From the sequence record AJ697969.1: a stretch of DNA of 64,000 bases. One strand, written 5' to 3'. Below are positions 41-55,626 of the stretch, piece after piece; the stretch's first letter is position 1; every line of letters begins with the position of its first letter. The notes under the pieces were generated by a model. That model was not told the DNA's origin. It worked only from the letters and a program-made list of their open reading frames with translations, and searched no databases. Source of the DNA: Pseudomonas phage EL. A program made the position numbers and the translations under genes.

Positions 41-397
41 ATGACCACTTCCAATGACAAAGCCAAAACCACCAACAAGTCCTTCACCGGTGAGCGCAAG
101 GAAGGTTTCGCAGCCACAACTGTCGCCGGGATCGTCGGAGGCGTCCTGGGTGCCGCCGCCCATTTCAATGGCACCAAAAACATCGGTTCGTCCCTGATCG
201 CCGGTGCGGCCGGTGTGACCGTCGGTTGGGCGGCGGGTCGTCTGGTGTCCCCTGTTCAACACCTCGGTACGCCAGCTACCATTCTGGGTAGTGCCTGGTC
301 GGGTCTGCTCGGTGCGTCGATCGCCATCACCGCGGGTGAACTGGCTGGTTCGGTAATGGGTGCTGCCCAAGAAGCCCTGCCGAGCGCCGGCGAGTAA
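41..397 (+). CDS. Small Gly/Ala-rich hydrophobic protein (glycine-zipper-like), host-like GC3-rich codon usage
   Basis: 118-aa ORF with start near 41. Repeated GxxxG/AxxxG hydrophobic stretches. Strong NNC/NNG third-position bias. Confidence 0.5.
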   Translation: MTTSNDKAKTTNKSFTGERKEGFAATTVAGIVGGVLGAAAHFNGTKNIGSSLIAGAAGVTVGWAAGRLVSPVQHLGTPATILGSAWSGLLGASIAITAGELAGSVMGAAQEALPSAGE

Positions 398-726
398 GTT
401 CTGCCCCAAGGAGAAGGTTATCCCTTCTCCTCTTCTTTTCAGTAACCCGCTCAGCCAGGAAGGTGTTTATTATGAAATCCAGCGGCCTGCTTCTTCTGTG
501 CGTTGGTGTTATGTTCGGCTTCTTGTTCGTGAACGCGAACTACGGCCAAGAGACTCAGGAAGATGAATCCCAAGAAGTGATCTTGGGACATCGTATTGCT
601 CCTAACGGGCAAGAAATCCTGGTCTACCAACACTGAAGAACCCACCCCCCGCTTCCTTGTCCTGTTTAAGAGGGATGAGGAGGCGGGTTCTTTACGTCTC
701 TTTCATTTTTCACATAGGGAAATACC

Positions 727-1158
727 ATGCTAACGCCAGATGAAGCGAAGAAACGTCGGGTAAGAGTGGCTGAAATCTTTAGTCTGATTTCGGAGGCTAA
801 TCAGCTTCTGGTTAAGGTCTCAGCCACCGCGAATGCTAACAGGAGTGAGGAGATGTTTGCGTTATCCATGTCTCTCCTGGAAGAGGCGGACACCAAGCTG
901 AATGCGTACAAAAAGGAATTCCCCAATTGTCTCTCCTTGAAGTACAACCGTTGGATGCAAGTCGGGGTGAATTCTGAGGGTGGGGTGAGTAATAAACAAG
1001 GGCTTCCTCAACCCCCTCTCTTGACTGAAGACAATCAGCTCTCCCCTGAGTGGGTGACTTGGTACAGTCAGGTTATGGGGTATTCCCATTCCCATGCCTT
1101 GGAGGTGGGTGAACTTCTGTTGAATGCGTATCAGAACCTTCCTCCCTCCGAAGTGTAA
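727..1158 (+). CDS. Hypothetical protein
   Basis: 143-aa ORF, ATG start, followed by a hairpin terminator. Confidence 0.5.
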   Translation: MLTPDEAKKRRVRVAEIFSLISEANQLLVKVSATANANRSEEMFALSMSLLEEADTKLNAYKKEFPNCLSLKYNRWMQVGVNSEGGVSNKQGLPQPPLLTEDNQLSPEWVTWYSQVMGYSHSHALEVGELLLNAYQNLPPSEV

Positions 1159-1174
1159 AGGATTAACGGCAAAC

Positions 1175-1205
1175 AGTCTCCCCCCTTAGGGGAGACTTTC
1201 TTGAG
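1175..1205 (+). terminator. Rho-independent terminator hairpin (agtctcccc/ggggagact) + T-rich tail
   Basis: Perfect 9-bp stem, 5-nt loop, followed by ttcttg. Confidence 0.55.
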
Positions 1206-1213
1206 AAAGACGT

Positions 1214-1465
1214 ATGTTTAGAATGAATAAGGGTTGTTACCCTACCGGAATAAATCCTAATGGAAAGTTTCTGAGTCAAGAGGAATTGTGGAAACTCCCC
1301 AATGGGACTTATGTAACCTCCCCTTCGCACCATCATCACGTCTATCAACACGCCCGTCGTGTTGAAGTTCGAGATGGTCAATGCTGGCTGGTCACTGATC
1401 CCAGGTATATCTATTCCCTTGAAGACTTCTTTAAATACAACCTGCTCTACAGGAAAACCGCATGA
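1214..1465 (+). CDS. Hypothetical small protein
   Basis: 83-aa ORF. Competes with an antisense 128-aa ORF. + strand preferred because neighbouring genes are +. Confidence 0.3.
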   Translation: MFRMNKGCYPTGINPNGKFLSQEELWKLPNGTYVTSPSHHHHVYQHARRVEVRDGQCWLVTDPRYIYSLEDFFKYNLLYRKTA

Positions 1466-1596
1466 AAAAGACCTGGATGTTGATGTCTCGTAGGAGACAT
1501 TCACCGAGCAGTATGGGATTGACCTAGGGAGTAAACTGGGCTCATTCATCGTTGATTAAAAACCTTTTGTCATTAATCCACTTATAGGACACCGTT

Positions 1597-2064
1597 ATGT
1601 CGAAGAAAATGCCGCCGGACTTCCGTAAACTGCACCTGGAAGCCTTGTACACCTACCTGAATGAAACCACGGGCGCGTGTGTCATCCTGGTTAACACCGA
1701 CGCCGGCCCTGAAGTGAAAGAAATCGGTCAAGGGAACCCCAGCGTCTTCTTCAACATCGGAGGGTTCGCGGTGAAGTACCTTCATTTCCATGAGGAGTAC
1801 GTTCATTTCGAATGCCGTTGCCAGGGGAAGGTATACGAGCTCTTCATCAAGTATGAAGATATCTTGGGTGTGCGGTATAACAGAGACTTGATTTACCTGG
1901 GTGGGGTGTGCCGAATAGTAGGTCAGGATGAAGACGGTCGGTTGATGCTCGCCCCTGGTGAAATCGCTCCTCCAGAACAGGATGATAAGAAAGAATCCTC
2001 CGTCCCCAAACCTCAGAACGGACACACCTCTCCGTTCAAGGTCATTGAAGGCGGTAAAGACTAA
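1597..2064 (+). CDS. Hypothetical protein
   Basis: 155-aa ORF with ATG start. Confidence 0.55.
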   Translation: MSKKMPPDFRKLHLEALYTYLNETTGACVILVNTDAGPEVKEIGQGNPSVFFNIGGFAVKYLHFHEEYVHFECRCQGKVYELFIKYEDILGVRYNRDLIYLGGVCRIVGQDEDGRLMLAPGEIAPPEQDDKKESSVPKPQNGHTSPFKVIEGGKD

Positions 2065-2083
2065 CCCCTCACTATCAATACCC

Positions 2084-2118
2084 CCGGTAGGGATAACCTA
2101 CCGGTGGTTAAATTATTC
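2084..2118 (+). terminator. Putative terminator hairpin (ccggtagg/cctaccgg)
   Basis: 8-bp stem with gataa loop followed by a T-rich stretch. Confidence 0.45.
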
Positions 2119-2189
2119 TGTTGAGTGTATCTAATACGTACATTGACCAGAATCATTTAGAGTTTCATAAACACCTGAGGTAATCCAAA

Positions 2190-2672
2190 ATGCTACCGAT
2201 TAAATCACGGCTACAAGAAATGATCATCAACGCCCAACCCCTCCCCGGCGTTGTGGATGACATTTACAAAGGCTACGAGGAAGTTAGGGTGTTCTTCTCC
2301 AACTTCGATCGGGTAATCACTCAACTCCCTTTCGATAAGGATATTCTCAATCACCTGCCCCGGGGTGAAGCCAAGACGGAGGACTTCTTCTTTCTCCACA
2401 CCATCTACCAGGAGCAGAACAAAGGCGCCATCCATGGCTTCGGAGAAGGGTATTCAGGGAACATTCGTTTCCGGATTAAGATCGTACGGAACACTAAAGG
2501 GGTCATTGCAGGGTTGACCGTAGGGACTCTGGGCTGGGGAATGAAAGATCTGGAACGGGATTTCAAGAACAAACACCTGTTGCATGGGGGTGTGGATTAC
2601 AAAGACGAACTCCTGGGTAAAGTGGTTCGTCATATTGAATTGGTCAAACTCTTCTACATCGAAGACATTTAA
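2190..2672 (+). CDS. Hypothetical protein
   Basis: 160-aa ORF. Confidence 0.55.
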   Translation: MLPIKSRLQEMIINAQPLPGVVDDIYKGYEEVRVFFSNFDRVITQLPFDKDILNHLPRGEAKTEDFFFLHTIYQEQNKGAIHGFGEGYSGNIRFRIKIVRNTKGVIAGLTVGTLGWGMKDLERDFKNKHLLHGGVDYKDELLGKVVRHIELVKLFYIEDI

Positions 2673-2697
2673 CATCTTTCAGAAGGAGTAACCCCCC

Positions 2698-3021
2698 ATG
2701 GTAACAGTTCGTAAGGAAGGTAAAGAACGGTCTCCTCTGTCGAGTCCCATCGTAGGCGAACGGGATTCCGTTGATTTCCATAACAACAAAGAACACCTGG
2801 AGAATGGGACGTATCGAGTTATCGAGTACGACGGGGAAATCAATTATTGTGTGTTAGACTATCTCGTTGAATCTTGGTACAGCGAGGAAGAACACATGGA
2901 ATTCCTCGATAATCTACACATGGACCATCTGGCCGAGAGAATAGGCGAGCCATACTGCGAAGACTTGGGAGAACCGTTCACCCAAGTCCTACATGACAAT
3001 TTCAGTGACCTTTTGACTTAA
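2698..3021 (+). CDS. Hypothetical acidic protein
   Basis: 107-aa ORF. RBS-like gaaggag upstream. Confidence 0.5.
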   Translation: MVTVRKEGKERSPLSSPIVGERDSVDFHNNKEHLENGTYRVIEYDGEINYCVLDYLVESWYSEEEHMEFLDNLHMDHLAERIGEPYCEDLGEPFTQVLHDNFSDLLT

Positions 3022-3038
3022 CAAGACGAGGGGGTGGT

Positions 3039-3824
3039 ATGAACACGTTTTACATCATTCAAGTCGACCAACGTTCCACTTCCCACCCGGGAACCATCAC
3101 TCAGTATTACGCCGAGGATCCCTCTTCTCGTGGTTATCCCGATTTCAGCAAGTCCTGGATGGACTGTAGCACTTTCCACAGCCTCGAAAGTGCTACTGAA
3201 GTCATTAACCGGATGCTCACTGATAAGAACACTCGCTTCGGTGATGGTTCGGTCTATCTTCCCCTCACATTCCGGATACTGCGTCGTGATTACAACGCAC
3301 CTGTTCCCGGTACGAAATACGAGTTCGATCTCTCCATTGTCGAGTTCTCCTACACCGATCCCTCCGACTTGAAAGTCAAAACAGTTGATCGCTGGGGAGT
3401 CGACTTCATATGGGGTGGAGGAGATAAACTCGCCAGGACTTTCTACCGCGTCGAAACGAATCCCGATCAACCCAACATGCCCTACTTGCCGGGTAAGAAT
3501 GAACCAAGTCTCTTCTACCCCAAGGCATTGGAGGGCGCTCACCCGTGGGTGTACTGGTATATCCGCAGTCATGAACTTGAGTTCACTTCCGCTTCAGTTA
3601 AAACTGCTTTGGAAGAGAAAGACAAGGTCATCGGTAAAATCAGTAACCAAAGTTCCAATGTGGAGCTTTACGACGAGATGTTTCCTAAAGCAGGCGACCG
3701 GGTTGCCGTGGGGGATCTAGTACTCCTGGGGGATGTTCTAGCTCTTCGTAATAAGAACTCCGATCTCACCCTGGAAGAAATCCACCAACAAAAATTGTCT
3801 CGTCGCGTTTCGAATAAACAATAA
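3039..3824 (+). CDS. Hypothetical protein, paralog family A (paralog of 4853-5659)
   Basis: 261 aa. Shares NEPS(L/V)FY...GAHPW(V/I)(Y/H)WYI..HELEFT and C-terminal L(S/T)LEE(V/I)H.Q(E/K)(I/L)(T/S)RR with the 4853 gene. Confidence 0.6.
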   Translation: MNTFYIIQVDQRSTSHPGTITQYYAEDPSSRGYPDFSKSWMDCSTFHSLESATEVINRMLTDKNTRFGDGSVYLPLTFRILRRDYNAPVPGTKYEFDLSIVEFSYTDPSDLKVKTVDRWGVDFIWGGGDKLARTFYRVETNPDQPNMPYLPGKNEPSLFYPKALEGAHPWVYWYIRSHELEFTSASVKTALEEKDKVIGKISNQSSNVELYDEMFPKAGDRVAVGDLVLLGDVLALRNKNSDLTLEEIHQQKLSRRVSNKQ

Positions 3825-3835
3825 AGACAGTCAGT

Positions 3836-3874
3836 CAACAGAGGCCCTGTGAGGCCTCTGTTGGTATTTATTTC
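3836..3874 (+). terminator. Rho-independent terminator (caacagaggcc/ggcctctgttg)
   Basis: 11-bp perfect stem, ctgtga loop, then gtatttatttc. Confidence 0.65.
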
Positions 3875-3893
3875 AGTAGTCAAGGAATTTGTA

Positions 3894-4358
3894 ATGGCTA
3901 GAAAAACCCTGTGTATGTTGATTCGCCATCACCAGTACGCGCTGGTAACCAATGACATCCAAAAGAGCGACTTCTTTTACACCTGCCCGTTTGAATCGAC
4001 CGTTGAAGGCCAACCGATTCTCTGTGCGGTGTTCTACAAGAAACCCAACCCCGAACGCATGAAAGCTGCGTATTCGCTGACGACTCTCCCCTGTCATTTG
4101 ACCCTTGAAGGATGGCAGAGCCTGATTGTGGATGCAGAACAACGCGCTATCCTCGTTACTCCCAGGCGGATCTATGATTTCCGTGGGGAGGAAATCAACG
4201 TGTGTAATGGAGAGAATAAGGGGTTTACCTTTGGAGCGGATGAATTCGTTCACCTTTTTGGTAAGTACCTCGACGTTAACGTTCCGTTGGGCGCTCTCTA
4301 CGCCGACAAGCAAATTGGTGAAGCATTTGAAGTTATCGCTGTAAAACCCCGTAACTAG
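3894..4358 (+). CDS. Hypothetical protein
   Basis: ORF starting at MARKTL, downstream of the terminator. aggaa RBS. Confidence 0.5.
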   Translation: MARKTLCMLIRHHQYALVTNDIQKSDFFYTCPFESTVEGQPILCAVFYKKPNPERMKAAYSLTTLPCHLTLEGWQSLIVDAEQRAILVTPRRIYDFRGEEINVCNGENKGFTFGADEFVHLFGKYLDVNVPLGALYADKQIGEAFEVIAVKPRN

Positions 4359-4433
4359 GAGGAGTGTTATGGGTACCCAAACGATCAGTTCGGCGATTAA
4401 CCCACAACCTTCCATTTCGTATTCGGGTGATTT

Positions 4434-4799: not shown

Positions 4800-4852
4800 T
4801 GGAATCCTCTACCCCGCGTCCTACAACCCTACTCCCTTAAAAGGAAGTCATC

Positions 4853-5659: not shown

Positions 5660-5692
5660 GCATTCCGTTAATCCTTATTCCACCGAGGGAGA

Positions 5693-6477: not shown

Positions 6478-6939
6478 ATGAATAAATACTGTGATCTTTA
6501 TGACGTGTTGGAACGGTTTGTTGGGCTGGTTAAACCTGTTGAATTTGGACTCCAACTGGGTTTTAAGGACCATCAGATTATCGGGGAGTTGAGATCTGTT
6601 GGTCTGCACTTGCCGCGTCAATCGGGTAAAACGACCCTGTTGTCCAAGTGGTGTTCGAAACACCCTGACGAAGTGTTCATCGTACACGGGTCTTCTCCAT
6701 GGTTAGAGGCTTTCAAAAGACTTTCAAACCTTCCCGAACTCCCCCCTTGGGTTTCGATCTCCAAAATACGAGACAACCAACCCTTGCTTACGGATCACTC
6801 GACCCTGAAGAAGATTAAATACGTGGTCGTCTATGGTTCGTCGGTTATTTTCTCCTACTGTGGACTCAAGCGTAAAGACTTCAACCAATGGGTGGCTGAC
6901 ACCTTTGGAACTGAAATCGTGGTGATCCATTTAGGTTAA
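6478..6939 (+). CDS. Small P-loop NTPase with terminase-like Walker A (P-RQSGKTT)
   Basis: Motif LHLPRQSGKTTLLS. Only 153 aa, so not a full terminase. Confidence 0.55.
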   Translation: MNKYCDLYDVLERFVGLVKPVEFGLQLGFKDHQIIGELRSVGLHLPRQSGKTTLLSKWCSKHPDEVFIVHGSSPWLEAFKRLSNLPELPPWVSISKIRDNQPLLTDHSTLKKIKYVVVYGSSVIFSYCGLKRKDFNQWVADTFGTEIVVIHLG

Positions 6940-6945
6940 GTTTAC

Positions 6946-7021
6946 TCCGTGATAGCTCAGTAGGTAGAGCAACTGTTTCGTAAACAGTAGGTCCCGGGTT
7001 CGAACCCTGGTCACGGAACCA
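6946..7021 (+). tRNA. tRNA-Thr (anticodon CGU) with encoded CCA
   Basis: Cloverleaf read by hand. Acceptor TCCGTGA/TCACGGA. D arm GCTC-AGTAGGTA-GAGC. Anticodon stem ACTGT/ACAGT with loop TTCGTAA. T arm CCGGG-TTCGAAC-CCTGG. Discriminator A followed by CCA. Confidence 0.85.
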
Positions 7022-9358: not shown

Positions 9359-10354
9359 TTGGAGAAGGTTGTGAAACATAAAGAAACACCCTTTCAACGA
9401 GCCAGCAGCGGGCATGTCCTTCAGGTCGGTGACAACGGGTCTTGCCATGTGGGGGATCACGGGACCGCCATCGCTGGAAAAAATAGCGTCGCCACCGCTG
9501 CGAACAATGGACACGCTGTTTCTGGAGACTATGGGACAGCCATCGTTGAACGCTTTGGTATCGCCTCTGCCGGAAATAAAGGCATGGCTATCGCCGGAGA
9601 TTGCGGCAGTGCCACCGCTGGAGATCATGGTATCGCCACCGCGGGAAATTACAGTACGGCTACTGTCGGATACTTAGGTACTGCCACCGCCGGAAAGAAA
9701 GGGAAAGCTACCGCTGGAGATTGGGGGACTGCTATCGTTGGACTCGATGGCGTTGCGTCTGCTGGAAAGAATGGAAAGATCCACATCCAGTACTTCGACA
9801 GTGAAGCCAATCGTTACCGCACAGCAGTTGGATATATCGGTGAGGACGGTCTCGAACCTGGCGTTCCTTACCAATTGGATGAAAACCACGAGTTCGTAAA
9901 GGGAGACATTGCCATGACAAAATTCTCTACAGAGGGCCACGTGACTATACTCTTCCGAGGATTGGGTGTAGGTCTTATCAACGTCCAGGTCGTAAGGGTC
10001 ACTAAGGGTATAGGACATCCCAAACCCTTTTTCCATATTGAGGGATCTGAAGACAAGGGTTACCGTTTGCTTCATAACGGGAGTGAATGGATTGATCAGG
10101 TCTTTGAGGCTAAGAAAGCTGTACTCTTCATTGAGTCCCTCTACCCCCCTGTGACACCCGATAAAGAGACCGTGAAACTTACAGTGCCCGAGGATCAGCA
10201 AATCCTGGTTAAAGTACGTCGAGTGAATAAGCTGGCCTTGGATGCTGTTGTGTTCCACATTGACACCCTGGGTGGTGCGTATCAGGTATCCTATACCGAG
10301 CAACTGACCCCCGATCTCAATCAGTTGACTCATGTTGAGTTAGTGGTCATTTAA
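9359..10354 (+). CDS. Octapeptide-repeat (xxGxAxAG) beta-solenoid-like protein
   Basis: About 15 tandem 8-residue repeats (DHGIATAG, NYSTATVG, YLGTATAG, KKGKATAG, DWGTAIVG ...) followed by a non-repetitive C-terminal domain. The true start may be the GTG at 9371. Confidence 0.65.
   Translation: MEKVVKHKETPFQRASSGHVLQVGDNGSCHVGDHGTAIAGKNSVATAANNGHAVSGDYGTAIVERFGIASAGNKGMAIAGDCGSATAGDHGIATAGNYSTATVGYLGTATAGKKGKATAGDWGTAIVGLDGVASAGKNGKIHIQYFDSEANRYRTAVGYIGEDGLEPGVPYQLDENHEFVKGDIAMTKFSTEGHVTILFRGLGVGLINVQVVRVTKGIGHPKPFFHIEGSEDKGYRLLHNGSEWIDQVFEAKKAVLFIESLYPPVTPDKETVKLTVPEDQQILVKVRRVNKLALDAVVFHIDTLGGAYQVSYTEQLTPDLNQLTHVELVVI
9425..9775 (+). repeat. 24-bp periodic coding tandem repeat (octapeptide repeats)
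   Basis: Imperfect 24-nt periodicity visible in the translation. Confidence 0.7.
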
Positions 10355-10902: not shown

Positions 10903-10971
10903 GGGGAGGAGGGACAGCCATCGGCTCTAAGCAGATGGGTTCCTCCTCCCCTCGCTCCTTTTATTTTTTTT
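10903..10971 (+). terminator. Long hairpin (ggggaggagg...cctcctcccc) + T9 run. Terminator of a possible ncRNA.
   Basis: 10-bp outer stem with an inner ccatc/gatgg stem, then ttttattttttttg. Confidence 0.6.
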
Positions 10972-11063
10972 GTCTTAATACCGTGTTACTCGACCGGTTT
11001 CTAAAGGATACAGACTGTACGAATATTATGTCTTATCCCCCGACTTACCAAGAGGTTAAAGCG

Positions 11064-11540
11064 ATGTCGAAAAACAACGATCAGAAGAACCCCTCCACTC
11101 CTGAGGACGAGAAGGCTAAAGCGGTAACCACCCCTCCGGTGACTCCTCCCGCTCAGCCAGCTCCCGCTACCCCTCAAACGTCTCCCAAAGCCTCGAAAGA
11201 CGAGAGTGAAGAGGATAACCAGGACTTCGACAACATTCTGATCAATGTACTGTCGCTCTATGACAATGGGGAATTCAATAAAGAACTCCTTATTGAGATG
11301 GTGGAAGAAGTCCGTAAGGTTACCCGTCCGGGTCTTATCCCCGAAGAATACTACATCGATGTCGCCGTACAGCGTTATGTGGAATTCGCCAAACGCAAGA
11401 AGATCGACCTGAAAAACCTGTCGATCCTGGTGGGTAATCCTGAAACCTCGGTAGAACTGCGCTCGCTGAACTTCTACCGTGCAATGGAAGGCCTGGGTCC
11501 GACCTTCTTCATGCCGTACATCATTGAGAGTAAAGAGTAA
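11064..11540 (+). CDS. Hypothetical protein with Pro/Thr-rich linker
   Basis: ORF from MSKNNDQ with gaggt RBS. A longer 10935 start is possible. Confidence 0.5.
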   Translation: MSKNNDQKNPSTPEDEKAKAVTTPPVTPPAQPAPATPQTSPKASKDESEEDNQDFDNILINVLSLYDNGEFNKELLIEMVEEVRKVTRPGLIPEEYYIDVAVQRYVEFAKRKKIDLKNLSILVGNPETSVELRSLNFYRAMEGLGPTFFMPYIIESKE

Positions 11541-11551: not shown

Positions 11552-11610
11552 CCCCTAACCCCTAGCCCCTTTAACAGGGCTAGGGGTTAGGGGGTATAAC
11601 ATTTATTTTT
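11552..11610. terminator. Bidirectional rho-independent terminator between convergent genes
   Basis: 17-bp perfect stem cccctaacccctagccc/gggctaggggttagggg flanked by A/T runs on both sides. Confidence 0.8.
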
Positions 11611-36472: not shown

Positions 36473-36476
36473 TTTT

Positions 36477-36493
36477 AAACCTACATTATTCAT
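36477..36493 (+). promoter_or_regulatory. Promoter-like motif AAACCTACATTATTCAT (perfect)
   Basis: Identical 17-mer also at 46918. Lies 18 nt upstream of ATG 36512. Confidence 0.55.
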
Positions 36494-41707: not shown

Positions 41708-42946
41708 ATGAAAAGCTTTATTGATGTATCAGTAGTAGAAGATGGGGGTAAACAGTTCCTCTTCGGTATTACTGCGAATCAAAAGACAGGACGACCCGAA
41801 GTCGTAGGATATACCGATCCTGATTATTTCAGAGAGGGTGCTGACCGTGTGTTTGAACAGCTTATCCGGGAAGAACAACGAAAGGAAGCGGATATTAAAC
41901 TCCAGTTAGCCTTTATTAAGGTGGTCAAGGAACATCCCGGTAAACAACTGCAACTCACGCTTTGCTACAGCGCAAATGGACCGTCAGCTGGAGAATTTTA
42001 TTGGGTGGAGGATCGGTGTTATACGGCTGACGGAGTGTCCTTCCTATCGAATGCTCCGGTGTGTATCTATCATAAGAACTGTCTGGATGGTACTGCGGCA
42101 GCTTGGGCGGTAAGACGTGCACTCCCCTTGGTTGAATTGGTGGCTATGAGCTATCATGATGATCCGTACGAACTCTTTGGCCCGGGGTTGGAGTATCTAC
42201 AAGGGAGAATGGTCTATTGTGTTGATTTCAGTTTTAAGAAAGCAGTTGTAGAAGCGATTGCTAATTTACCGGATACAGGCTTGTTGATCTTGGATCATCA
42301 CGAGAGTGCTCAACGGGAACTGGGTGAACTCGTCGTTGGTTATTCCGGGAAATCAACGCTGGGTGATCGGGTTGAGATTATCATCGATATGACACGTTCA
42401 GGCGCTAAGTTGACGTACGACTACTTCCACCCTCAACAACCGACGCCTCCGGGTATTCTGGCGGTACAAGATCGGGATCTGTGGAAATGGGGGTACGAAG
42501 GCAGTAAGGAATGGACCGCAGCTGCCTTTGGGTATCCCCTCACCGTTGAGAGTTTCGATAAACTGATTCATCGGGATTACCAAGACGTGGTAGAAGAAGG
42601 TCGTACCGTCCTTCGTAAGCAGGAATTGGATGTCGAGAAACTGCTCCCGAGTGCGCGGCCTTACACGTTGGAGGGGTACAACTGCTTGATTGTTAATGCC
42701 AGTTATTTCCACGCCAGTGATGTAGGGGATAAACTGAAGGGTCGAGACGGTATTGACTTTGTAGTCACTTACATGGATGGTAAGGATAGCCGGATCTTCT
42801 CTCTACGGGGTAAGGATAAAGTGAACCTAGCGGAAGTGGCTGAACGTTTTGGAGGAGGCGGCCACCCTAACGCAGCAGGGTTCACCTTGAGCTTCAACGA
42901 TCCTCGTTTCTCCCAGTCACACCTGTTACTATATTCCGGTACTTAA
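41708..42946 (+). CDS. DHH-DHHA1 family phosphoesterase (NrnA/RecJ-like)
   Basis: DHH motif LILDHHES. DHHA1 motif FGGGGHPNAAGF. Confidence 0.75.
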   Translation: MKSFIDVSVVEDGGKQFLFGITANQKTGRPEVVGYTDPDYFREGADRVFEQLIREEQRKEADIKLQLAFIKVVKEHPGKQLQLTLCYSANGPSAGEFYWVEDRCYTADGVSFLSNAPVCIYHKNCLDGTAAAWAVRRALPLVELVAMSYHDDPYELFGPGLEYLQGRMVYCVDFSFKKAVVEAIANLPDTGLLILDHHESAQRELGELVVGYSGKSTLGDRVEIIIDMTRSGAKLTYDYFHPQQPTPPGILAVQDRDLWKWGYEGSKEWTAAAFGYPLTVESFDKLIHRDYQDVVEEGRTVLRKQELDVEKLLPSARPYTLEGYNCLIVNASYFHASDVGDKLKGRDGIDFVVTYMDGKDSRIFSLRGKDKVNLAEVAERFGGGGHPNAAGFTLSFNDPRFSQSHLLLYSGT

Positions 42947-43667: not shown

Positions 43668-43698
43668 GGGAGTAAAAAATTAAGTTAAGGAATGAAAC

Positions 43699-43715
43699 AA
43701 ACCTACATTACCAGG
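43699..43715 (+). promoter_or_regulatory. Promoter-like motif AAACCTACATTAccagg (12/17)
   Basis: 70 nt upstream of ATG 43785. Confidence 0.45.
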
Positions 43716-43784
43716 GTGAATAGACAACGGGATTGTTTGCAGGTAAGTGACTTTCCCTTCTAAAGACAGAAAAGGGTTATAAAG

Positions 43785-44999
43785 ATGAGCGTGACTACTG
43801 ACTTCAATGCCGCCCTGGCGAATGTCTTGAGTGACATCGGTGAAAAGACAGACCGTGAGGAGATCCTGTCGATCATCTACCACCACCTCTTCGACGAGAC
43901 GCGTTTCAATAAATCAAAGCGTCCGTCTGCGCTGAAGAAGATCAACGAGGCGACTCGTTCCCGGTTTACGATGAACGACGTTCGTCACGCCGGTAAGAAA
44001 CCGGAGAAGTTGATCGTAACGGATAAACTGTCCGGTCATGTTGACATTCCCGTCCGTGTGATGGGTGAAGTGAATGAACAGGCCTCGCAGGCAGAGACTG
44101 TTCCGGCAACCCCCACTGAAACTGATGCAATGACCCACCTGGAGAACACCATGAAAGAAGAAAACCAACCGCTCGCCCAACAACTCCTGGAACGATCCCA
44201 AGGTGCCCGCGCCGCCTATGAAGAACAGGCGGGGGCTTCCAGCTGGTCCGACAGCAATGACAGCGACGAGGTCGTCGAGGTACTGGGGGTGACCTTCAAG
44301 GCCGATAACATCCTGTCCTACACCATCGACGCCTGGCTGATCAACGGCGGTCTCCCGACTCACCTGAAGACCGAACTGGAAGAGCTCGTCAAGAGTCAAG
44401 ACCACTCGTCCCCGGCGGGTGCGCTCCGTGCCTTCCTGGACGACCACCCCGAACTCAGCCAGGAGTTCATCAATCAGTACAGCAAGGCGGTAAAAGACAT
44501 CAACGCCACCGGCGTGGAAGCTGAAAAGGCGCGCCGTGATGCGGCTAAAGCCCAACGGCAAGCGCCGGGTACCTTCAAGGAACGTGTCGTCTACACCCTC
44601 CGGGGCGGTCGTGAAGAAGGCTTCGGTTCCGGCGCGGTGGCGGCTGCTGCGGCGATCATCGGCGGTGGTGTCGAAATGGCATCACGTGGGAATGTGAGCA
44701 TCGGTTCGGTTGTGGGTACGGGGCTGGGTGCGGCGGCCGGTTACTTCGCGGCTGAGAAAGCAGAAGGCCTCATGAAGAGCGAACCGGGTCGTTACATCGT
44801 GAGTGGTTCGATCGGTCTGATCCTGGGTGGGGCGGGTTCCAACCTCGGACGTACCACTCAAGGCCTTCTGGGCTTCGGTCCTCAGCAGCCCCAAGGCGAG
44901 CCCGTAGCGACGGTTTCCGTTCGGGAGCAGGTCACGGCACAACCGGAACCGGTTCCTCAATCCCAGGGCATTCTGGCCACGGTAGCTGCCCTGTTCTAA
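43785..44999 (+). CDS. Hypothetical protein (404 aa) with C-terminal glycine-zipper membrane region. GC3-rich.
   Basis: Strong third-position GC bias. The C-terminus GSGAVAAAAAIIGGG...GLILGGAG resembles the 41-397 protein. Confidence 0.65.
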   Translation: MSVTTDFNAALANVLSDIGEKTDREEILSIIYHHLFDETRFNKSKRPSALKKINEATRSRFTMNDVRHAGKKPEKLIVTDKLSGHVDIPVRVMGEVNEQASQAETVPATPTETDAMTHLENTMKEENQPLAQQLLERSQGARAAYEEQAGASSWSDSNDSDEVVEVLGVTFKADNILSYTIDAWLINGGLPTHLKTELEELVKSQDHSSPAGALRAFLDDHPELSQEFINQYSKAVKDINATGVEAEKARRDAAKAQRQAPGTFKERVVYTLRGGREEGFGSGAVAAAAAIIGGGVEMASRGNVSIGSVVGTGLGAAAGYFAAEKAEGLMKSEPGRYIVSGSIGLILGGAGSNLGRTTQGLLGFGPQQPQGEPVATVSVREQVTAQPEPVPQSQGILATVAALF

Positions 45000-45057
45000 G
45001 CAATACGGAATAACAGCGAACATGATTAAACTCAGTTAATCGACTGACGGTGCTCGA

Positions 45058-45106
45058 CTACGAGGGGTTATTCCCTCGTAGTTGGGTATTCGTTCTCTAT
45101 TTTTTA
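45058..45106 (+). terminator. Terminator (ctacgaggg/ccctcgtag) + T-run
   Basis: 9-bp perfect stem then tctctatttttt. Confidence 0.6.
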
Positions 45107-45490: not shown

Positions 45491-46099
45491 TTGATATTAA
45501 TGGACGCATATGTCAACGATCCAACGCTCCCTAACTTCGATCAAGAGATCCGAGCGCTCCAATACCTTAAAGACCATTTTACCCGTAATCCCAAGAAGAT
45601 GAAGAAGATGTGTCTGAGGATGTTGCCTGAACTCCCTGGGTTCATTAGGGACGCCTTTATTAACAACATTATTCTGGGGAAAGATCCTATTCACTGGCTG
45701 GAACACGCATTCGCTGAAATGGACCAGTATCCTGTCTTAATGAAACAGTTCATTGAGGAAGGGAACCATGGGATGATCTTTGATAAGGGAACCCTCTATG
45801 GTTTCAGCCTGAAGACCAACCCGAAGTGGTTGAGTAACCAAGATGGGGAATGGGACCCTGAGGAAGAGCAGGCGATTATCGATCAGGCGCTGAATGCATG
45901 GATGGTTAAGGAGCGTCGTCGAAGCTTCCGAGGGCGTATTGTGCTCTTCCAAGACTTTGGGTTCTCCGGGATTACGTTCCTGGTCGATCACGCTTTTACG
46001 GATGAATACTGGGAGGAATGTCAGAAACAATGGGAACTGGAGGATAAACGCCAGTTGGATCAAGAACTTAGGGCACTTCTTTCTAAGGCAGGTTGTTGA
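45491..46099 (+). CDS. Hypothetical protein (202 aa)
   Basis: ORF. Confidence 0.55.
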   Translation: MILMDAYVNDPTLPNFDQEIRALQYLKDHFTRNPKKMKKMCLRMLPELPGFIRDAFINNIILGKDPIHWLEHAFAEMDQYPVLMKQFIEEGNHGMIFDKGTLYGFSLKTNPKWLSNQDGEWDPEEEQAIIDQALNAWMVKERRRSFRGRIVLFQDFGFSGITFLVDHAFTDEYWEECQKQWELEDKRQLDQELRALLSKAGC

Positions 46100-46213
46100 G
46101 CATCACAGTCTGCGGAACAACATCTTCTCGCAGGGCGAGGATTACCTCAAAGCCCGCAAATCCACCACTCAGGGTCTTGTTACCTTGAACATCAGCTGTA
46201 AGGAGCTTAAGTA

Positions 46214-46588
46214 ATGCAATACACCCAAGAGAGTTTGGCCGAGACTCCAATGGAACAACGTATCGAAGCGATGCTGTTCGGACTCCAAACCCTGACCTTC
46301 CAAATGAACACCTCGATCGTCGAGTTCTACATCGGCGAGGTCAAGCTGAAAGCGCAGCCGGGTGCTCTGGTCGCTGACATCGTCGTCGAGCGCGATGGTG
46401 AACCGCTGGTGCATTACCGCGCCCGTTCCGAAGGCACCACCATTTCGATACCGAAGTCCAGTGTCAGTGAGCAGAAACTCATCGAGTACCTCGAGAAGTT
46501 CTCGGTCATGGTGATCTACGCTATTCACCGTGCGTTTATCAAGGAACATTGCGATAACCGCACTACCCTCATCCCTCCCCAAGAGTAA
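46214..46588 (+). CDS. Hypothetical protein (124 aa), GC3-rich codon usage
   Basis: Very strong NNC/NNG bias. aaggag RBS. Confidence 0.6.
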   Translation: MQYTQESLAETPMEQRIEAMLFGLQTLTFQMNTSIVEFYIGEVKLKAQPGALVADIVVERDGEPLVHYRARSEGTTISIPKSSVSEQKLIEYLEKFSVMVIYAIHRAFIKEHCDNRTTLIPPQE

Positions 46589-46671
46589 TCTTACTTAGGG
46601 GTAGGCAACTACCCCTTCCCCGATCCTGGGTTATTCTCTGCTGGATCGGAATAATAAACGGTGAGGATGCC

Positions 46672-46896: not shown

Positions 46897-46917
46897 GTTT
46901 AAAACGTATTTATTCTC

Positions 46918-46934
46918 AAACCTACATTATTCAT
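46918..46934 (+). promoter_or_regulatory. Promoter-like motif AAACCTACATTATTCAT (perfect)
   Basis: 48 nt upstream of ATG 46983. Identical to the 36477 copy. Confidence 0.55.
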
Positions 46935-49781: not shown

Positions 49782-49791
49782 GGAGAACGGT

Positions 49792-50413: not shown

Positions 50414-50421
50414 GGTGACGT

Positions 50422-51026: not shown

Positions 51027-51029
51027 ATA

Positions 51030-51509
51030 GTGAATGTGTTCACACAGTGGATTAAACGGGTCTTCAAACGTCAACATGAGCCTCTCTTGAGTCAAGAGGA
51101 GACCAACGCCCTCATTAAGGATGTAACCACGGACTACCTCAAAACTGCGGTATCGATCGTGTTGAGAACTGTTCCCCATACCACGTTGGATGGTAAACCG
51201 AACCCTCGCTGGATTATGGGTGTCGCTCCAGGGTTCCCGGATTATGATGTCGAAGCACTGATCGGGGTTATTAACGGACTGCGTAAGGAAGAAGACGACG
51301 TCATCGATGACTATGTCTTCCACCGGAATGAGTCGGCTAATTACCGGAATCTGGATGAAGAACTTCAACCGTTTATTAAGCCCGCTGTACGGTTCAATGA
51401 GAATAACAAAATCGAAATCAAGTTACTGGGCGGTTGGAAACCTTTTAACCCCGCTGTGTCGGGTTCTGTACGGAGAAAAATGAATGAAGACAAACACTTC
51501 ACCGCCTGA
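51030..51509 (+). CDS. Hypothetical protein
   Basis: 159-aa ORF with GTG start. Confidence 0.5.
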   Translation: MNVFTQWIKRVFKRQHEPLLSQEETNALIKDVTTDYLKTAVSIVLRTVPHTTLDGKPNPRWIMGVAPGFPDYDVEALIGVINGLRKEEDDVIDDYVFHRNESANYRNLDEELQPFIKPAVRFNENNKIEIKLLGGWKPFNPAVSGSVRRKMNEDKHFTA

Positions 51510-52032
51510 GTACATCATCAGTGAGAACGGTGACTGGTTCCATTTCAGTGGGTATTGGGGGGTGTTCTCCCGGTGCTTGTGTCGGATGGGTGGGAAGTTC
51601 CATGAGGCTATCGATGTCTCGTTAACCCCGATTAATGTCTGGCAGTGGGAAAACCTGAAACAGGTTCGTATTCGTAAACACCGCACCGCTGAGACCAATC
51701 CCTTTGCCTTTGCCCATTCGTTCCCCAAAGTGCGTTATGACCACCTGGTAGAAAAAGTGGGGGAGACGGTTGCGCACCTGCTGGTTCACGAGGATCTCTT
51801 GGCTGAAATAGACATGTCGCTGTTTCGCCACATGGATCGTGTGTGGGGATGGGGTGGTGGTGTCCCCTTTATCCTGGTGTGTAAAGAGCGAGACCGTTAC
51901 CCTGAGCTCCTGGAACATTGGTTCACTGTATTGGATAACGAATCCGCGTACTTGAAAAGCATGGATGAGGACATGATGCAACGTTATCTCATCCATACTG
52001 AAAGCTGTCGGGCTAAAGCCCACTCTCACTAA
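51484..52032 (+). CDS. Hypothetical protein
   Basis: 182-aa ORF. Confidence 0.5.
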   Translation: MKTNTSPPEYIISENGDWFHFSGYWGVFSRCLCRMGGKFHEAIDVSLTPINVWQWENLKQVRIRKHRTAETNPFAFAHSFPKVRYDHLVEKVGETVAHLLVHEDLLAEIDMSLFRHMDRVWGWGGGVPFILVCKERDRYPELLEHWFTVLDNESAYLKSMDEDMMQRYLIHTESCRAKAHSH

Positions 52033-52103
52033 TTCCGAACACCCGCTCCTATTCTTTACCTCGGAATGACAACTCAATCGTTAATGACCTATAAGGAACC
52101 TGA

Positions 52104-52364
52104 ATGACTACCATCAAAGTCCAACAAAAACTGGGTCTGGCTGCTTTTGCTATCCTGTCGGACCAACTGAAAGCAGAAGGTATTCACGTGATTAACCCGG
52201 TAGAGGGCGAGGTGGTTACCGCTGACGATGTGGTTGGTAAAGTCCTGGCTGCCTTCAACCTGGGCAACAAGATTGAAGTGAACGCGGACGTCCCCGCTAG
52301 CAATAAAGGGGTGAATTACCGGTTCGAACGGATTGGGGGAGCGTACTACCTGGTCCGGAAGTAG
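52104..52364 (+). CDS. Hypothetical protein (86 aa), GC3-rich
   Basis: aaggaa RBS. Followed by a terminator. Confidence 0.6.
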   Translation: MTTIKVQQKLGLAAFAILSDQLKAEGIHVINPVEGEVVTADDVVGKVLAAFNLGNKIEVNADVPASNKGVNYRFERIGGAYYLVRK

Positions 52365-52375
52365 CTAACGACTCG

Positions 52376-52417
52376 CCCTCCTGCCTTATTGGCAGGAGGG
52401 TGTATGTCCTTTATTTG
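52376..52417 (+). terminator. Terminator (ccctcctgcc/ggcaggaggg)
   Basis: 10-bp perfect stem then tgtatgtcctttatttg. Confidence 0.6.
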
Positions 52418-52430
52418 TTATGAGGTGGTT

Positions 52431-53093
52431 ATGTCAAGACAATCGTTGTTGGAATATGGAAGAGGGTGGTTATGCGACCAGGGTGGTGAGGGTAAAGAGG
52501 AATGGACCGGGGGTGACGCGGTGTTCTACTCCATGAGTGTCAGTCCTTTAGCTTATCCCACCACCACCTTTTGGACGGGTCGTTTCAATATCCACATGGA
52601 GAACATCACTGTTCGGTTACATTCGCACGATAATGATCCTGAATTGGTGTTGTTCTTCAATAAGCTCAATCTACTGGAGCAGGGCGTACGGGAGTATTGC
52701 AAGGCGTTCAGAAAGGTCCTCAATAACCCGAAGAAACCCCTAAAGGAACCCGTCTATAAGCGACAGTGGCTCAACCCTGAGAACATTGAAGCGCCCTTTA
52801 CGGGGTATTATTTCTATTGCATCGATCAGGATAAGGCAGGCCGGTTCTGCGTTGGGGATTGCCACCGGACCATTGTGATGTGGATGGACATTCACCACAA
52901 TGACGGGAGGGTCTTTAACAAAGCGTTGTTAGAAGTTCAACTCAGCGCTCTCCAATGCCTGGTGACCTATTTGAAGGAGGCTCAGGTTAAGATCAAGAGT
53001 CTTCGTAAGCAATACAAGGTCTTAGGTTGGGATAAACCTCAGGAGCTCCAGAGTGACACGTCCTCTGAGGACGTTCTTCCCGATCCCCAGTAG
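52431..53093 (+). CDS. Hypothetical protein
   Basis: ATG after the gaggtgg RBS. The track start overlaps the terminator. Confidence 0.5.
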   Translation: MSRQSLLEYGRGWLCDQGGEGKEEWTGGDAVFYSMSVSPLAYPTTTFWTGRFNIHMENITVRLHSHDNDPELVLFFNKLNLLEQGVREYCKAFRKVLNNPKKPLKEPVYKRQWLNPENIEAPFTGYYFYCIDQDKAGRFCVGDCHRTIVMWMDIHHNDGRVFNKALLEVQLSALQCLVTYLKEAQVKIKSLRKQYKVLGWDKPQELQSDTSSEDVLPDPQ

Positions 53094-53101
53094 AAATTAA
53101 T

Positions 53102-53118
53102 AAACCTATATTACTCAG
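53102..53118 (+). promoter_or_regulatory. Promoter-like motif AAACCTAtATTAcTCAg (14/17)
   Basis: 39 nt upstream of the chaperonin ATG. Confidence 0.5.
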
Positions 53119-53157
53119 GTGTAATGCAATTAGGTATGGTTTAACAGGAGTACGAAG

Positions 53158-54834
53158 ATGTCTCAAACGCTACTGGTACATGGTAAAGATGCCCAAGGAA
53201 TCATTAAACAGGTCTTGAGTGAGGTGTATGACGCCGTCACTTCGACCATGGGTCCGAATGGTCAGTTGGTGATGATCAAGAATGGGGTCTCCACCAAGAC
53301 CACCAAGGATGGGGTGACGGTAGCCCGTTCCATTCGCTTTGCAGATGAAGCCCATGAATTGGTGAACCGGGTAATTACCGAGCCGGCTACGAAGACCGAT
53401 GAGGAATGCGGGGATGGCACTACCACCACCATCATGCTGACCCATGCGCTCTATCACCTGTTCAAGGACTTCCCAGGTTTCCAACACCACCGGAACATTG
53501 AAGACTTGGTAGAGCGGGTTATCCAACGTTTGGAATCCATGGCGATTCGGGTGGAAGTGGATGACCCTCGGTTGTATCAAGTGGCCCTGACCTCGTCTAA
53601 CCAGGATGAAAAGCTCGCCCGACTGGTTAGTGAGCTCTATGCGAATAACAAAGGGAGTTATCCGGATATTGAACTCAAGGAAGGGGTCAACTTCGAAGAC
53701 CAGATCGAACAAACTACAGGGCGCACTATCCGTATGTTCTACGCGAATCCCTGGTTTGCGAAAGGCCACCAAGGGGGTGTGACAGAATTGACGGGGTTTA
53801 CGGCGTTCGTTATCGATCGTCGGATTGACAAGGAAGACACCCAGAAGTTGATTGATGGGGTGAATCACCTTGTGAAAACTCACAAACAACACCTGGCCCT
53901 TCCCATCCTGCTGATTGCACGAAGTTTCGAAGAAGCCGCTAACTCGACCCTGATGCAATTGAATGCGGCGCACCCAACCCTGGTAGAAGACGGACGTCCT
54001 TGGTTAATCCCGTTGAGTACGCCGGTAGGTGGTGCAATTGGGACCTCTGAACTGCAAGACATCGCGGTCATGCTGAACGCCCCTATGCTCAGTGACGTAG
54101 CGGACCTGACCAAGTTGGATACCCATTCGATCAATGGCCAACACGGCCAACTGGAACTGGGGGGCAATCGGTCTATCCTGAAGAGTACCACACCTAAGGA
54201 TGAAGACCGGATCGAACAACATGCTCGGGGTATTGAGGAACTGTTGGAGGGGTTTAGCCTCAGCGATAAGTTCTCTGTACGCGCCCGGTACAACGAACGG
54301 CGTATTCGGACCCTACGGGGTAAGTTGATCACCATTTCCGTAGGCGGCGAAACCTATTCTGAAGTCAAGGAACGGGTAGACCGGTACGAGGATGTGGTGA
54401 AAGCCATTCGTTCCGCCTTGGAGAACGGCATCCTTCCTGGCGGTGGCGTATCCCTGGTTAAGGCGGTCTTCGGTACGATCAAGGAAGGCCTCGAAGATAA
54501 AGACCAGAGCGCTGAGTTTGCTAAGCGGTATATCAACTCAGGCATTGCCAATGAGTTGATGCGACTGTCCACTATTCAGCATAAGCTGTTGTTCAAGGAC
54601 ACGGCGCTGTATAAGGAAAATGGGAGTTTCCATTTTAATGATGATTGGCTCAATACACCGACCGTCATGAATCTGGCAACTGGTGAGATTGGTACCCCGG
54701 AGGGATTGGGTATTTATGACACCGCGTATGCCTCTATCACTGCGCTGAAAGGCGGACTCCAAACCGCTAAGATCTTGGCCACTACGAAGACACTGATCCT
54801 AGGGGAGAAGTTGTCGGCGGTTAAGGTGCGGTAA
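53158..54834 (+). CDS. GroEL-like chaperonin (Cpn60)
   Basis: TMGPNGQLVMIKNGVSTKTTKDGVTVARSI matches TLGPKGRNVVL...PTITKDGVSVAREI. GDGTTTTIML matches GDGTTTATVL. C-terminal GILPGGGVSLVKA. Confidence 0.9.
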   Translation: MSQTLLVHGKDAQGIIKQVLSEVYDAVTSTMGPNGQLVMIKNGVSTKTTKDGVTVARSIRFADEAHELVNRVITEPATKTDEECGDGTTTTIMLTHALYHLFKDFPGFQHHRNIEDLVERVIQRLESMAIRVEVDDPRLYQVALTSSNQDEKLARLVSELYANNKGSYPDIELKEGVNFEDQIEQTTGRTIRMFYANPWFAKGHQGGVTELTGFTAFVIDRRIDKEDTQKLIDGVNHLVKTHKQHLALPILLIARSFEEAANSTLMQLNAAHPTLVEDGRPWLIPLSTPVGGAIGTSELQDIAVMLNAPMLSDVADLTKLDTHSINGQHGQLELGGNRSILKSTTPKDEDRIEQHARGIEELLEGFSLSDKFSVRARYNERRIRTLRGKLITISVGGETYSEVKERVDRYEDVVKAIRSALENGILPGGGVSLVKAVFGTIKEGLEDKDQSAEFAKRYINSGIANELMRLSTIQHKLLFKDTALYKENGSFHFNDDWLNTPTVMNLATGEIGTPEGLGIYDTAYASITALKGGLQTAKILATTKTLILGEKLSAVKVR

Positions 54835-54845
54835 GGGGTTTGTAA

Positions 54846-54886
54846 AGGAGTAGGGGGAAGACCCCTACTCCTTTATTTTTTTTTTA
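54846..54886 (+). terminator. Strong rho-independent terminator (aggagtagggg/cccctactcct) + T13
   Basis: 11-bp perfect stem then ttatttttttttt. Confidence 0.85.
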
Positions 54887-54996
54887 AGGAAATCGATGGA
54901 TGACGAAGCATTTGAAGGAGGTAGACATCCTATGCAGTGAGTCTTGTAACTTCTTTTGACTTACTCCCATTGGACCACCTTTAAGAGGATAAAGCA

Positions 54997-55626
54997 ATGG
55001 CTTCAAACCTTCCAATCCAAACGATCTTCCTCGACAAATTCGTCGAGTTCAACAAAGACCGCTACAAAGACCAGGCGGAAATGCTCGCCCTCTTTGACGG
55101 CCTGACCCTCGCGGACATCACGATCTCCGACATCACCGCCGACGGCGCCAACCCCGAGCTGCAAAGCGCCACGGTCACCTCTGTGAGCCGCAACTTCAAA
55201 GGTGTCGAACAAAAATGGCTCCCGGCGAACATCAACACTCCGTTCGCCTTCGTGGTGGTGAACAAAGGCGCTCCCCTGACCGGCGAAGACCAACTGGCCG
55301 AGCAGACCACCCCGGGTGCCTACGTTTACCTGGTCGGTGAAGGCGAAGAAGCGGTTCAACGCGTGGGCCTGGTGCTGGCTTCCACCACCACCACTGAAAC
55401 CCAAGCCGCCGACGCCCTGGCGCTGTTCAAGGCCAACTTCGAATACGTCCTGGACGACGCCGATGTCGATACTGCCACCGCCAAGGTGCTCAAGGTAACC
55501 ACCAACCCGTTCACCCGCGGCGAGCTCGTGTACGAAATTGGTAAGGCTCCGATCATCGAGATTCCGGAAACTGACTACGGTCGTCTGGAATTCAAAGAAA
55601 TCGTTCAACCCGAACCCCAACCGTAA
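54997..55626 (+). CDS. Abundant-protein candidate (209 aa) with host-like codon usage and C-terminal DYGRLEFKEI motif
   Basis: Very strong GC3 bias. aagagga RBS. C-terminal motif shared with the 14608 gene. Confidence 0.65.
   Translation: MASNLPIQTIFLDKFVEFNKDRYKDQAEMLALFDGLTLADITISDITADGANPELQSATVTSVSRNFKGVEQKWLPANINTPFAFVVVNKGAPLTGEDQLAEQTTPGAYVYLVGEGEEAVQRVGLVLASTTTTETQAADALALFKANFEYVLDDADVDTATAKVLKVTTNPFTRGELVYEIGKAPIIEIPETDYGRLEFKEIVQPEPQP

Follow-up and report, generated by a model that had tools for sequence, protein, structure and literature searches.

Codon optimality, not GC3, sets apart a scattered group of genes in Pseudomonas phage EL and points to translational selection

The adaptation of the codon usage of abundant phage proteins to that of the host is textbook knowledge, and EL, a jumbo phage of Pseudomonas aeruginosa, has a GC content of 49%, compared with ~66% for its host. 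EL was among the 74 phages analyzed by Lucks et al. 2008 (PMC2266997), where it appears as phiEL (NC_007623, 201 genes) with a GC content at third codon positions (GC3) of 57.8%. In the parts of that paper drawn on here, the landscape of the codon adaptation index (CAI) of phiEL relative to P. aeruginosa is reported to be non-random after control for amino acids and GC3 (p 7e-20, the third strongest signal among the 74 phages), and structural genes are reported to carry host-preferred codons in general. In P. aeruginosa, codon usage linked to expression varies along an axis separate from that of GC3 (Grocock and Sharp 2002, cited through PMC3002238). In the present study, we analyzed individual genes in a window of 64,000 nucleotides of EL (AJ697969.1; 'the window' denotes this whole stretch). 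An earlier reading made from the letters of this DNA, hereafter the sequence-only reading, had flagged five scattered genes (gp82, gp127, gp130, gp144 and gp147) as a class with an extreme host-like GC3 bias, and had proposed either selection for very high expression or recent acquisition from a source of higher GC content.

The annotation of the closest record, OP599913, was transferred to the window by tblastn and, together with two long open reading frames (ORFs), gave a set of 72 genes; further ORFs absent from the annotation of that record all scored like bulk genes. All five flagged ORFs, and two antisense ORFs listed with them, are present where the sequence-only reading had placed them. 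By megablast, the window is 99% identical to Pseudomonas phage IR-QUMS-PaBa1 (genus Elvirus), and genome-wide tests were performed on MIZ-Pa99 (97–99% identical), whose 201 coding sequences (CDSs) carry functional labels. We computed for each gene an optimality score, a log-likelihood ratio in which the reference consisted of the major capsid, nuclear-shell (chimallin), internal-head and sheath genes and the background of bulk genes, all taken from outside the window, and expressed it on a scale from bulk to reference. The five flagged genes all fell among the top seven of the 72 genes (P 1.5e-6; Mann–Whitney p 3e-7; Table 1). In its choice of genes the sequence-only reading was therefore essentially right, in that the set differs in codon optimality; it erred in using GC3 as the descriptor and in calling the bias 'extreme'.

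The codon shift was not a simple GC shift, since T-ending GGT and CGT rise while G-ending GGG, CGG, TTG and ACG fall. From the bulk to the abundant-protein genes and to the flagged genes, respectively, the frequencies changed from 0.39 to 0.62 and 0.50 for GGT, from 0.31 to 0.64 and 0.55 for CGT, from 0.34 to 0.05 and 0.11 for GGG, from 0.33 to 0.07 and 0.13 for CGG, from 0.25 to 0.03 and 0.05 for TTG, and from 0.26 to 0.10 and 0.19 for ACG. When gp127, gp130 and gp147 were compared with the four abundant-protein genes, their shifts relative to the bulk were correlated (r 0.84). An unsupervised within-amino-acid correspondence analysis (axis 1, 17.7% of inertia; axis 2, 7.9%) placed the internal head, major head and chimallin genes, gp147, one hypothetical gene, gp82, gp130 and gp127 at the top of axis 1. 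Among four codon models compared by likelihood, the usage of abundant-protein genes gave the best fit to gp82, gp127, gp130 and gp147; its advantage in these four genes was 30, 71, 10 and 24 nats, respectively, over host-average usage and 18, 32, 12 and 44 nats over phage bulk usage. The bulk model was strongly preferred by ligA, rnhA, one fiber gene and the chaperonin gene.

We further compared the direction of this shift with that of the host. The host proxy was the oprF region of P. paraeruginosa ATCC 9027, a member of the P. aeruginosa group whose OprF is 100% identical to the query; oprF is a classic high-expression gene, and the 15 genes flanking it served as the host average (GC3 of 0.853, compared with 0.785 in oprF). 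The difference between oprF and the host bulk was correlated with the shift in the phage abundant-protein genes (r 0.83) and in the flagged genes (r 0.79). The T-ending codons CGT and GGT, frequent also in the optimized phage genes, increase from 0.13 in the host average to 0.47 in oprF and from 0.10 to 0.40, respectively. With CAI values based on oprF, the five flagged genes ranked 4, 8, 9, 13 and 18 of 201. These correlations, together with the neighbors of the flagged genes in the correspondence analysis, support the first of the two proposals, selection for high expression on the host translation system, and we consider it about 80% probable that the codon usage of the flagged genes reflects ordinary translational selection for abundant proteins on host tRNAs.

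Under such selection, genes needed in very large amounts would be driven towards the codons best translated by the host, and the preferred set would comprise CTG, CCG, CGT/CGC, GGT/GGC, ACC, ATC, TTC, TAC, AAC and GAC. The rise in GC3 would then be a by-product, because most of these codons end in C or G. As EL has one tRNA, its mRNAs would be read by the host tRNA pool. On the optimality scale, gp147, gp82, gp130 and gp127, and more weakly gp144, share one end with the major capsid, nuclear-shell, internal-head and sheath genes; since this is the end occupied by genes of known abundant proteins, the flagged products are most likely very highly expressed. The label 'abundant virion or early proteins', which the sequence-only reading had attached to them, is plausible, with indirect support from the family of virion-structural paralogs that includes gp147 and from the upstream motif that gp82 and gp127 have in common with the chimallin gene.

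However, several points weigh against this interpretation. First, codons for Gln, Lys and Glu in the abundant class do not move to the G-ending choices of the host. Second, the high-expression reference of the host is a single gene of 349 codons, oprF, from a sister species, and the reference genes of the optimality score were first picked up through their GC3 excess, although the unsupervised ordering agrees with the score. Third, gp146, which encodes a GroEL-like chaperonin, exhibits bulk codon usage (optimality of 0.06); its product matches a PHROG chaperonin family and is the known EL chaperonin. Fourth, the bulk and abundant-class likelihoods of gp144 are not separable (–0.5 nats), and its membership in the optimized set is borderline. 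Finally, the pooled proportion of synonymous differences (pS) between EL and MIZ-Pa99 was lower in the high class (0.038 versus 0.055; Fisher p 0.028), which is the direction that selection would give, but individual genes showed no correlation, and this difference is weak and could reflect recombination mosaics.

Table 1. Coordinates of the flagged genes and other features in the window. Optimality is given on the scale from bulk to reference, with its z value and its rank among the 72 genes.
Feature	Position	Strand	Description	Optimality	z	Rank
gp82	41-397	+	118 aa; exact protein match CAG27176.1	0.92	5.6	2
gp83	472-636	+	54 aa; phrog_15989; unflagged, intermediate	0.61	2.5	6
tRNA-Thr(CGU)	6946-7021	+	single tRNA of EL-type genomes; reads ACG			
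gp102, C-terminal 80 codons	11298-11540	+	unflagged member of the high class	1.08	5.25	
Hairpin after gp102	11552-11593		17-bp, perfect			
TCAAACCTAYATTAY sites	36475-36489, 43697-43711, 46916-46930, 55703-55717	+				
DHH-family phosphoesterase gene	41708-42946	+	low outlier			
Promoter-like motif ACAAACCTACATTACCAGGGTGA	43697-43719	+	66 nt upstream of gp127			
gp127	43785-44999	+	404 aa; EL protein by exact sequence match	0.77	8.4	4
Antisense ORF in gp127	43914-44561	-	codon-aligned frame; spurious; no PHROG match			
Stem-loop, terminator-like	45049-45090	+	19-bp, then U-run; downstream of gp127; fold z -4.9			
gp129	45500-46099					
gp130 cassette	46097-46620	+	524-bp: 117 nt upstream, CDS and hairpin (46597-46616)			
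gp130	46214-46588	+	EL protein by exact sequence match	0.82	4.8	3
gp144	52104-52364	+	86 aa; EL protein by exact sequence match	0.55	2.6	7
Hairpin after gp144	52374-52402		12-bp			
gp146	53158-54834	+	GroEL-like chaperonin			
Hairpin between gp146 and gp147	54842-54876		strong, terminator-like			
gp147	54997-55626	+	209 aa; EL protein by exact sequence match	1.16	8.6	1
Antisense ORF in gp147	55003-55620	-	codon-aligned frame; spurious; no PHROG match			
Hairpin after gp147	55634-55665		14-bp			
Kelch-repeat virion protein gene	61130-62632	-	low outlier			

The per-gene GC3 values bear on a different explanation, namely that no real class exists and that the pattern arises from sampling noise in short genes combined with amino acid composition. 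In the 72 window genes, GC3 had a mean of 0.573, a standard deviation (SD) of 0.053 and a range of 0.45–0.74 (pooled, 0.576). The values of the flagged genes were 0.650 for gp82, 0.665 for gp127, 0.699 for gp130, 0.600 for gp144 and 0.736 for gp147; A- or T-ending codons thus make up 26–40% of these genes, which had been described as using NNC/NNG codons almost exclusively, and the range of 0.60–0.74 is far from the 0.85 of the host that 'extreme host-like' implied. When z values were conditioned on the amino acid composition of each gene, with leave-one-out expectations, gp147 (4.85), gp127 (4.35) and gp130 (3.09) were outliers, while gp82 (1.5) and gp144 (0.7) were not. Neither the window nor the genome showed bimodality of GC3, whether or not length cut-offs were applied (Silverman p 0.70–0.92), and the distribution was unimodal in every length stratum, an outcome that the sequence-only reading had itself named as counting against two GC3 classes. 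With three of five genes as outliers and no bimodality, GC3 was abandoned as a statistic in favor of the optimality score.

In addition to the two flagged genes that are not GC3 outliers, the unimodality of GC3 and the borderline position of gp144, the noise explanation is favored by the binomial SD expected at ~150 codons, which at ~0.04 amounts to most of the observed 0.053. However, the GC3 spread exceeded binomial sampling in the window (sum of z² of 180 for 72 genes, p 4e-11), and the over-dispersion was strong across the genome (650 for 201 genes). The composition-conditioned optimality z values of four flagged genes lie between 4.8 and 8.6, five genes specified in advance fell within the top seven, and a one-component model of optimality was rejected (Bayesian information criterion of 116 for one Gaussian versus 72). 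As an account of the whole set, noise is therefore very unlikely; it is refuted for gp82, gp127, gp130 and gp147 and possible for gp144 alone. The second component was a broad right tail (mean of 0.34, SD of 0.42, 23% of genes), the fitted latent density had one mode, and Silverman tests of optimality gave p values of 0.18 over the full gene set, 0.37 with a minimum length of 100 codons and 0.01 with a minimum of 150 codons. Instead of two discrete classes, we accordingly read the distribution as a continuum with a heavy tail containing roughly a dozen strongly optimized genes.

The second proposal of the sequence-only reading was recent acquisition from a source of higher GC content. The donor would then be either the host or a GC-rich phage, and the composition of the flagged genes would not yet have drifted to that of the phage. 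Their GC3 is indeed above that of neighboring genes, as is the total GC of gp82 and gp127, although the high GC at the first and second codon positions of these two genes arises because their products are rich in Gly and Ala. Moreover, gp130 lies in a cassette of ~520 bp found at different loci across Elvirus genomes. The codon choices, however, are not donor-like: GGT exceeds GGC, CGT exceeds CGC and CAA exceeds CAG, GC3 remains well below that of the host, and host-average usage fits gp82, gp127, gp130 and gp147 worse than the usage of abundant phage genes in every case. The same type of usage is found in the core capsid, sheath and chimallin genes. Full-length gp82, gp127 and gp130 occur in eight of eight phage records recognized as related, gp147 is likewise present in all seven with a match to it, and gp144 is identical in OP599913. 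In our searches, no homologs were found in bacteria or GC-rich phages, nor anywhere outside EL-like or RisingSun-like jumbo phages, and the 'P. aeruginosa' database entries that match the full-length proteins are located on contigs of up to 206–214 kb, which are phage genomes. Acquisition from a higher-GC source is thus extremely unlikely, and native codon usage, with its preference for T-ending CGT and GGT, again favors translational selection.

The largest GC3 excesses among the 201 MIZ-Pa99 genes belonged to the major head protein (z of 6.9) and the nuclear shell protein chimallin (6.3), followed by the internal head protein (5.5), gp127 (4.3), the tail sheath protein and gp147 (both 4.25). 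Low outliers were equally strong: the gene for a DHH-family phosphoesterase had a GC3 of 0.47 (z of –4.2), and that for a kelch-repeat virion protein had a z of –3.0; both were low in optimality as well. An HNH endonuclease gene is also among the lowest genome-wide. If an atypical origin were to be sought, it would be in these low outliers and not in the flagged genes.

The only hint of mobility concerned gp130. Its cassette occurs in HHBS47_1 at 195456–195985, with 87% nucleotide identity, where it adjoins the head-maturation-protease cluster, and a gp130 homolog is similarly displaced in four or five more phages, including HHBS8_1, phiRU, GXNNE2 and GXNNA8. In EL, MIZ-Pa99 and IR-QUMS, gp130 is found downstream of gp129. 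The unit is a translocated small gene cassette that has moved within the genus; its location varies, its presence does not, and its codon usage is native.

A further possibility is that the third codon positions are constrained by an antisense gene, by mRNA structure or by a regional mutational bias. Long antisense ORFs overlap four flagged genes, and strong stem-loops lie directly 3΄ of gp127, gp130, gp144, gp147 and gp102. However, in the codon-aligned antisense frame, stop codons come solely from sense TTA, CTA and TCA codons, and long antisense runs arise because these three are rare. They amount to 16 per 1000 codons across the window, are entirely lacking in 16 of 72 genes, and occur once in the 210 codons of gp147; their frequency decreases with optimality (rho –0.61) and yet is not diagnostic. 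Stop-free antisense runs of at least 150 codons were accordingly found window-wide, in 21 of the 72 genes, so that the long spurious antisense ORFs noted by the sequence-only reading do exist but are not specific to the flagged genes. As candidates for real genes these antisense ORFs were rejected, since they had no family matches, whereas sense proteins do have such matches. The hairpins that flank several of the genes are all outside coding regions, and they would fit a division into separate transcription units. Codon usage next to the flagged genes is ordinary, and the effect therefore ends at gene boundaries. The same preferred codons also appear in unlinked genes encoded on either strand, such as the sheath gene on the minus strand. 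We give a constraint of this kind almost no weight.

The most strongly optimized gene, gp147, matched phrog_18233 (E 3e-93), and the N-terminal part of its product matched phrog_21620, annotated as 'virion structural protein'. Among EL proteins it is the best match of gp205, gp206, gp207 and the N-terminus of gp201 of phage RisingSun, which lie in a cluster of virion-structural paralogs. A search of a large database returned six proteins, all from phages or metagenomes, and relatives were found only in EL-like metagenomic phages and in the Erwinia phages RisingSun and Joad. Mass spectrometry identified gp200, gp204, gp206 and gp207 of RisingSun, and according to the same work the EL counterpart of gp207 was among the proteins of the EL virion proteome (PMC6034870). 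From these matches we infer that gp147 is that counterpart, and it is probably a virion protein. An AlphaFold2 model from an alignment of six sequences (pLDDT of 59.7) gave nothing at E < 0.2 in a Foldseek search against the PDB and provided no structural assignment. A second gp147 paralog is found just outside the window (MIZ-Pa99, 161888–162469, minus strand; phrog_18233, E 4e-25; mild optimization, 0.29), adjoining lipase and tail-fiber genes. The chaperonin gene gp146 is directly upstream of gp147, and the two are separated by a strong terminator-like hairpin.

The sequence-only reading had described gp82 and the C-terminus of gp127 as Gly/Ala-rich membrane-type sequences with glycine zippers. 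The Gly/Ala richness was borne out, but a match to a zipper family was not: none of the glycine-zipper families in Pfam (Gly-zipper_Omp, YMGG and OmpA types) matched gp82 or gp127 at E ≤ 0.1. Gly, Ala and Ser make up 44% of gp82, which has 16 small-xxx-small-xxx-small motifs and a maximum KD19 hydropathy of 1.64; gp127 has 13 small-xxx-small motifs, a Gly/Ala-rich C-terminal third and a peak hydrophobic segment at residues 280–298 (KD19 of 1.40). Homology between gp82 and the C-terminus of gp127 was considered and rejected as not significant (E 0.21). The bias of gp127 is gene-wide and extends beyond its Gly/Ala-rich tail, with optimality values of 0.63, 1.01 and 0.71 in successive thirds. Homologs of gp127 were found only in Elvirus, with none outside the genus among 5.8 billion proteins; its one weak PHROG match was to a family whose function is not assigned. 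No Pfam or PHROG function match was obtained for gp82, gp130 or gp144.

Two unflagged genes also scored above the bulk. In gp102, the C-terminal 80 codons belong to the high class, while the upstream segments of the gene as scored (11028–11540) had optimality values of 0.15 and –0.58, which are bulk-like or worse. The plus-strand region 10935–11540 is annotated with lengths of 80, 158, 170 and 201 amino acids across genomes, and these differing lengths, together with the optimized last 80 codons, suggest that the true start of gp102 may be the ATG at 11298. The other gene, gp83, encodes a product with a strongly hydrophobic N-terminal segment (KD19 of 2.14).

We also searched for candidate promoters. 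The core TCARRYCTAYATHAY occurs at 16 sites in MIZ-Pa99, compared with 0.8 expected, all on the plus strand and 15 of them intergenic. Similarly, 15 of the 16 TCAAACCTAYATTAY sites in that genome precede genes by 5–105 nt, the nuclear-shell gene among them, and the motif is found ~70 nt upstream of both gp82 and gp127. An extended form (...YWGKGTGA, the ending also written ...CAGGGTGAATAG) precedes the chimallin gene, gp82, gp127 and three other optimized genes. In phiKZ, an AT-rich early-promoter element is used by the virion RNA polymerase (PMC10914365). By this analogy, TCAAACCTAYATTAY is probably a phage promoter and possibly one of the early class, and gp82 and gp127 would probably be early proteins whose promoter resembles that of the chimallin gene. 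By itself, the core motif is no predictor of codon optimization (p 0.14). A short promoter-like pattern, TWAYYWGKGTGA, was rejected because it was not above chance (seven sites in the window with one mismatch, eight expected), significance being confined to the longer motif, and sigma-70-type promoters were fewer than expected by chance.

These features raise the speculative and rather unlikely possibility of a small, co-regulated and extremely codon-optimized gene set that would be expressed with the nuclear-shell protein. Its candidates are gp82, gp127 and approximately three genes outside the window, which have the upstream motif TCAAACCTAYATWAYYWGKGTGA in common with the chimallin gene; gp82 and the C-terminus of gp127 carry glycine-zipper-like, weakly hydrophobic segments. 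If such a set exists, gp82 and gp127 could be abundant early proteins specific to Elvirus and associated with a membrane or the shell, with a possible role in the early infection vesicle or in the construction of the nucleus.

The tRNA supply was also considered, and an Rfam scan found nothing besides the tRNA listed in Table 1. Among Thr codons, the share of ACG, which it reads, is 26% in bulk phage genes and 10% in those for abundant proteins, compared with a host average of 18% and a value of 3% for oprF; this is consistent with a phage tRNA-Thr that compensates for a codon poorly served by the host. With regard to A- and G-ending codons, the optimized class uses CAA at ~0.5–0.7, AAA at ~0.48 and GAA, which rises, at 0.70; the host prefers CAG (0.81–0.88) and AAG (0.82–0.86).

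Two plus-strand genes are missing from the OP599913 annotation. The ORF at 9359–10354 is a real gene (phrog_18079, E 3.5e-47), at whose counterpart in MIZ-Pa99 small minus-strand ORFs are annotated instead, and the ORF at 6478–6939 is likewise real (phrog_2586, E 5e-30).

These results show that codon adaptation in the EL/P. aeruginosa pair is poorly captured by GC3, and that optimality offers an inexpensive way to predict abundance. By this measure, gp147, gp127, gp82, gp130 and the C-terminal 80 codons of gp102, all annotated only as 'hypothetical', encode probable high-abundance products. Proteomic or structural studies of EL-like nucleus-forming phages could sensibly begin with optimized hypothetical genes of this kind.

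Compared with known systems, the flagged genes resemble morons and genomic islands in having local GC and GC3 above those of their neighbors, and gp130 further resembles them in being a small cassette that carries a hairpin and differs in location between genomes. Unlike morons and islands, however, their usage matches that of the core abundant genes of the phage, and no foreign homologs were found. With respect to P. aeruginosa, the optimized phage genes follow the expression axis of the host, CGT and GGT being raised as in oprF, although the bulk of the phage is far from host composition (GC3 of 0.58 versus 0.85) and the A/G-ending two-fold codons for Gln, Lys and Glu in the optimized genes do not follow the host. 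The closest precedent is the study of Lucks et al. (PMC2266997), which concerns the same phage, the same host and the same phenomenon, and the GC3 obtained here (57.6–57.9%) agrees with its value. Since codon adaptation of phiEL was published in 2008, the phenomenon described here is a rediscovery. The parts of that paper drawn on here give genome-level statistics and do not name individual EL genes, whereas our analysis provides a gene-level list; in the literature searched, EL gp82, gp127, gp130, gp144 and gp147 are not named individually. What is new is the placement of gp82, gp127, gp130, gp147 and the C-terminal part of gp102 in the optimized class, and the observation that a non-virion gene, that of the nuclear shell, is as optimized as the capsid gene, as are several genes annotated as hypothetical.

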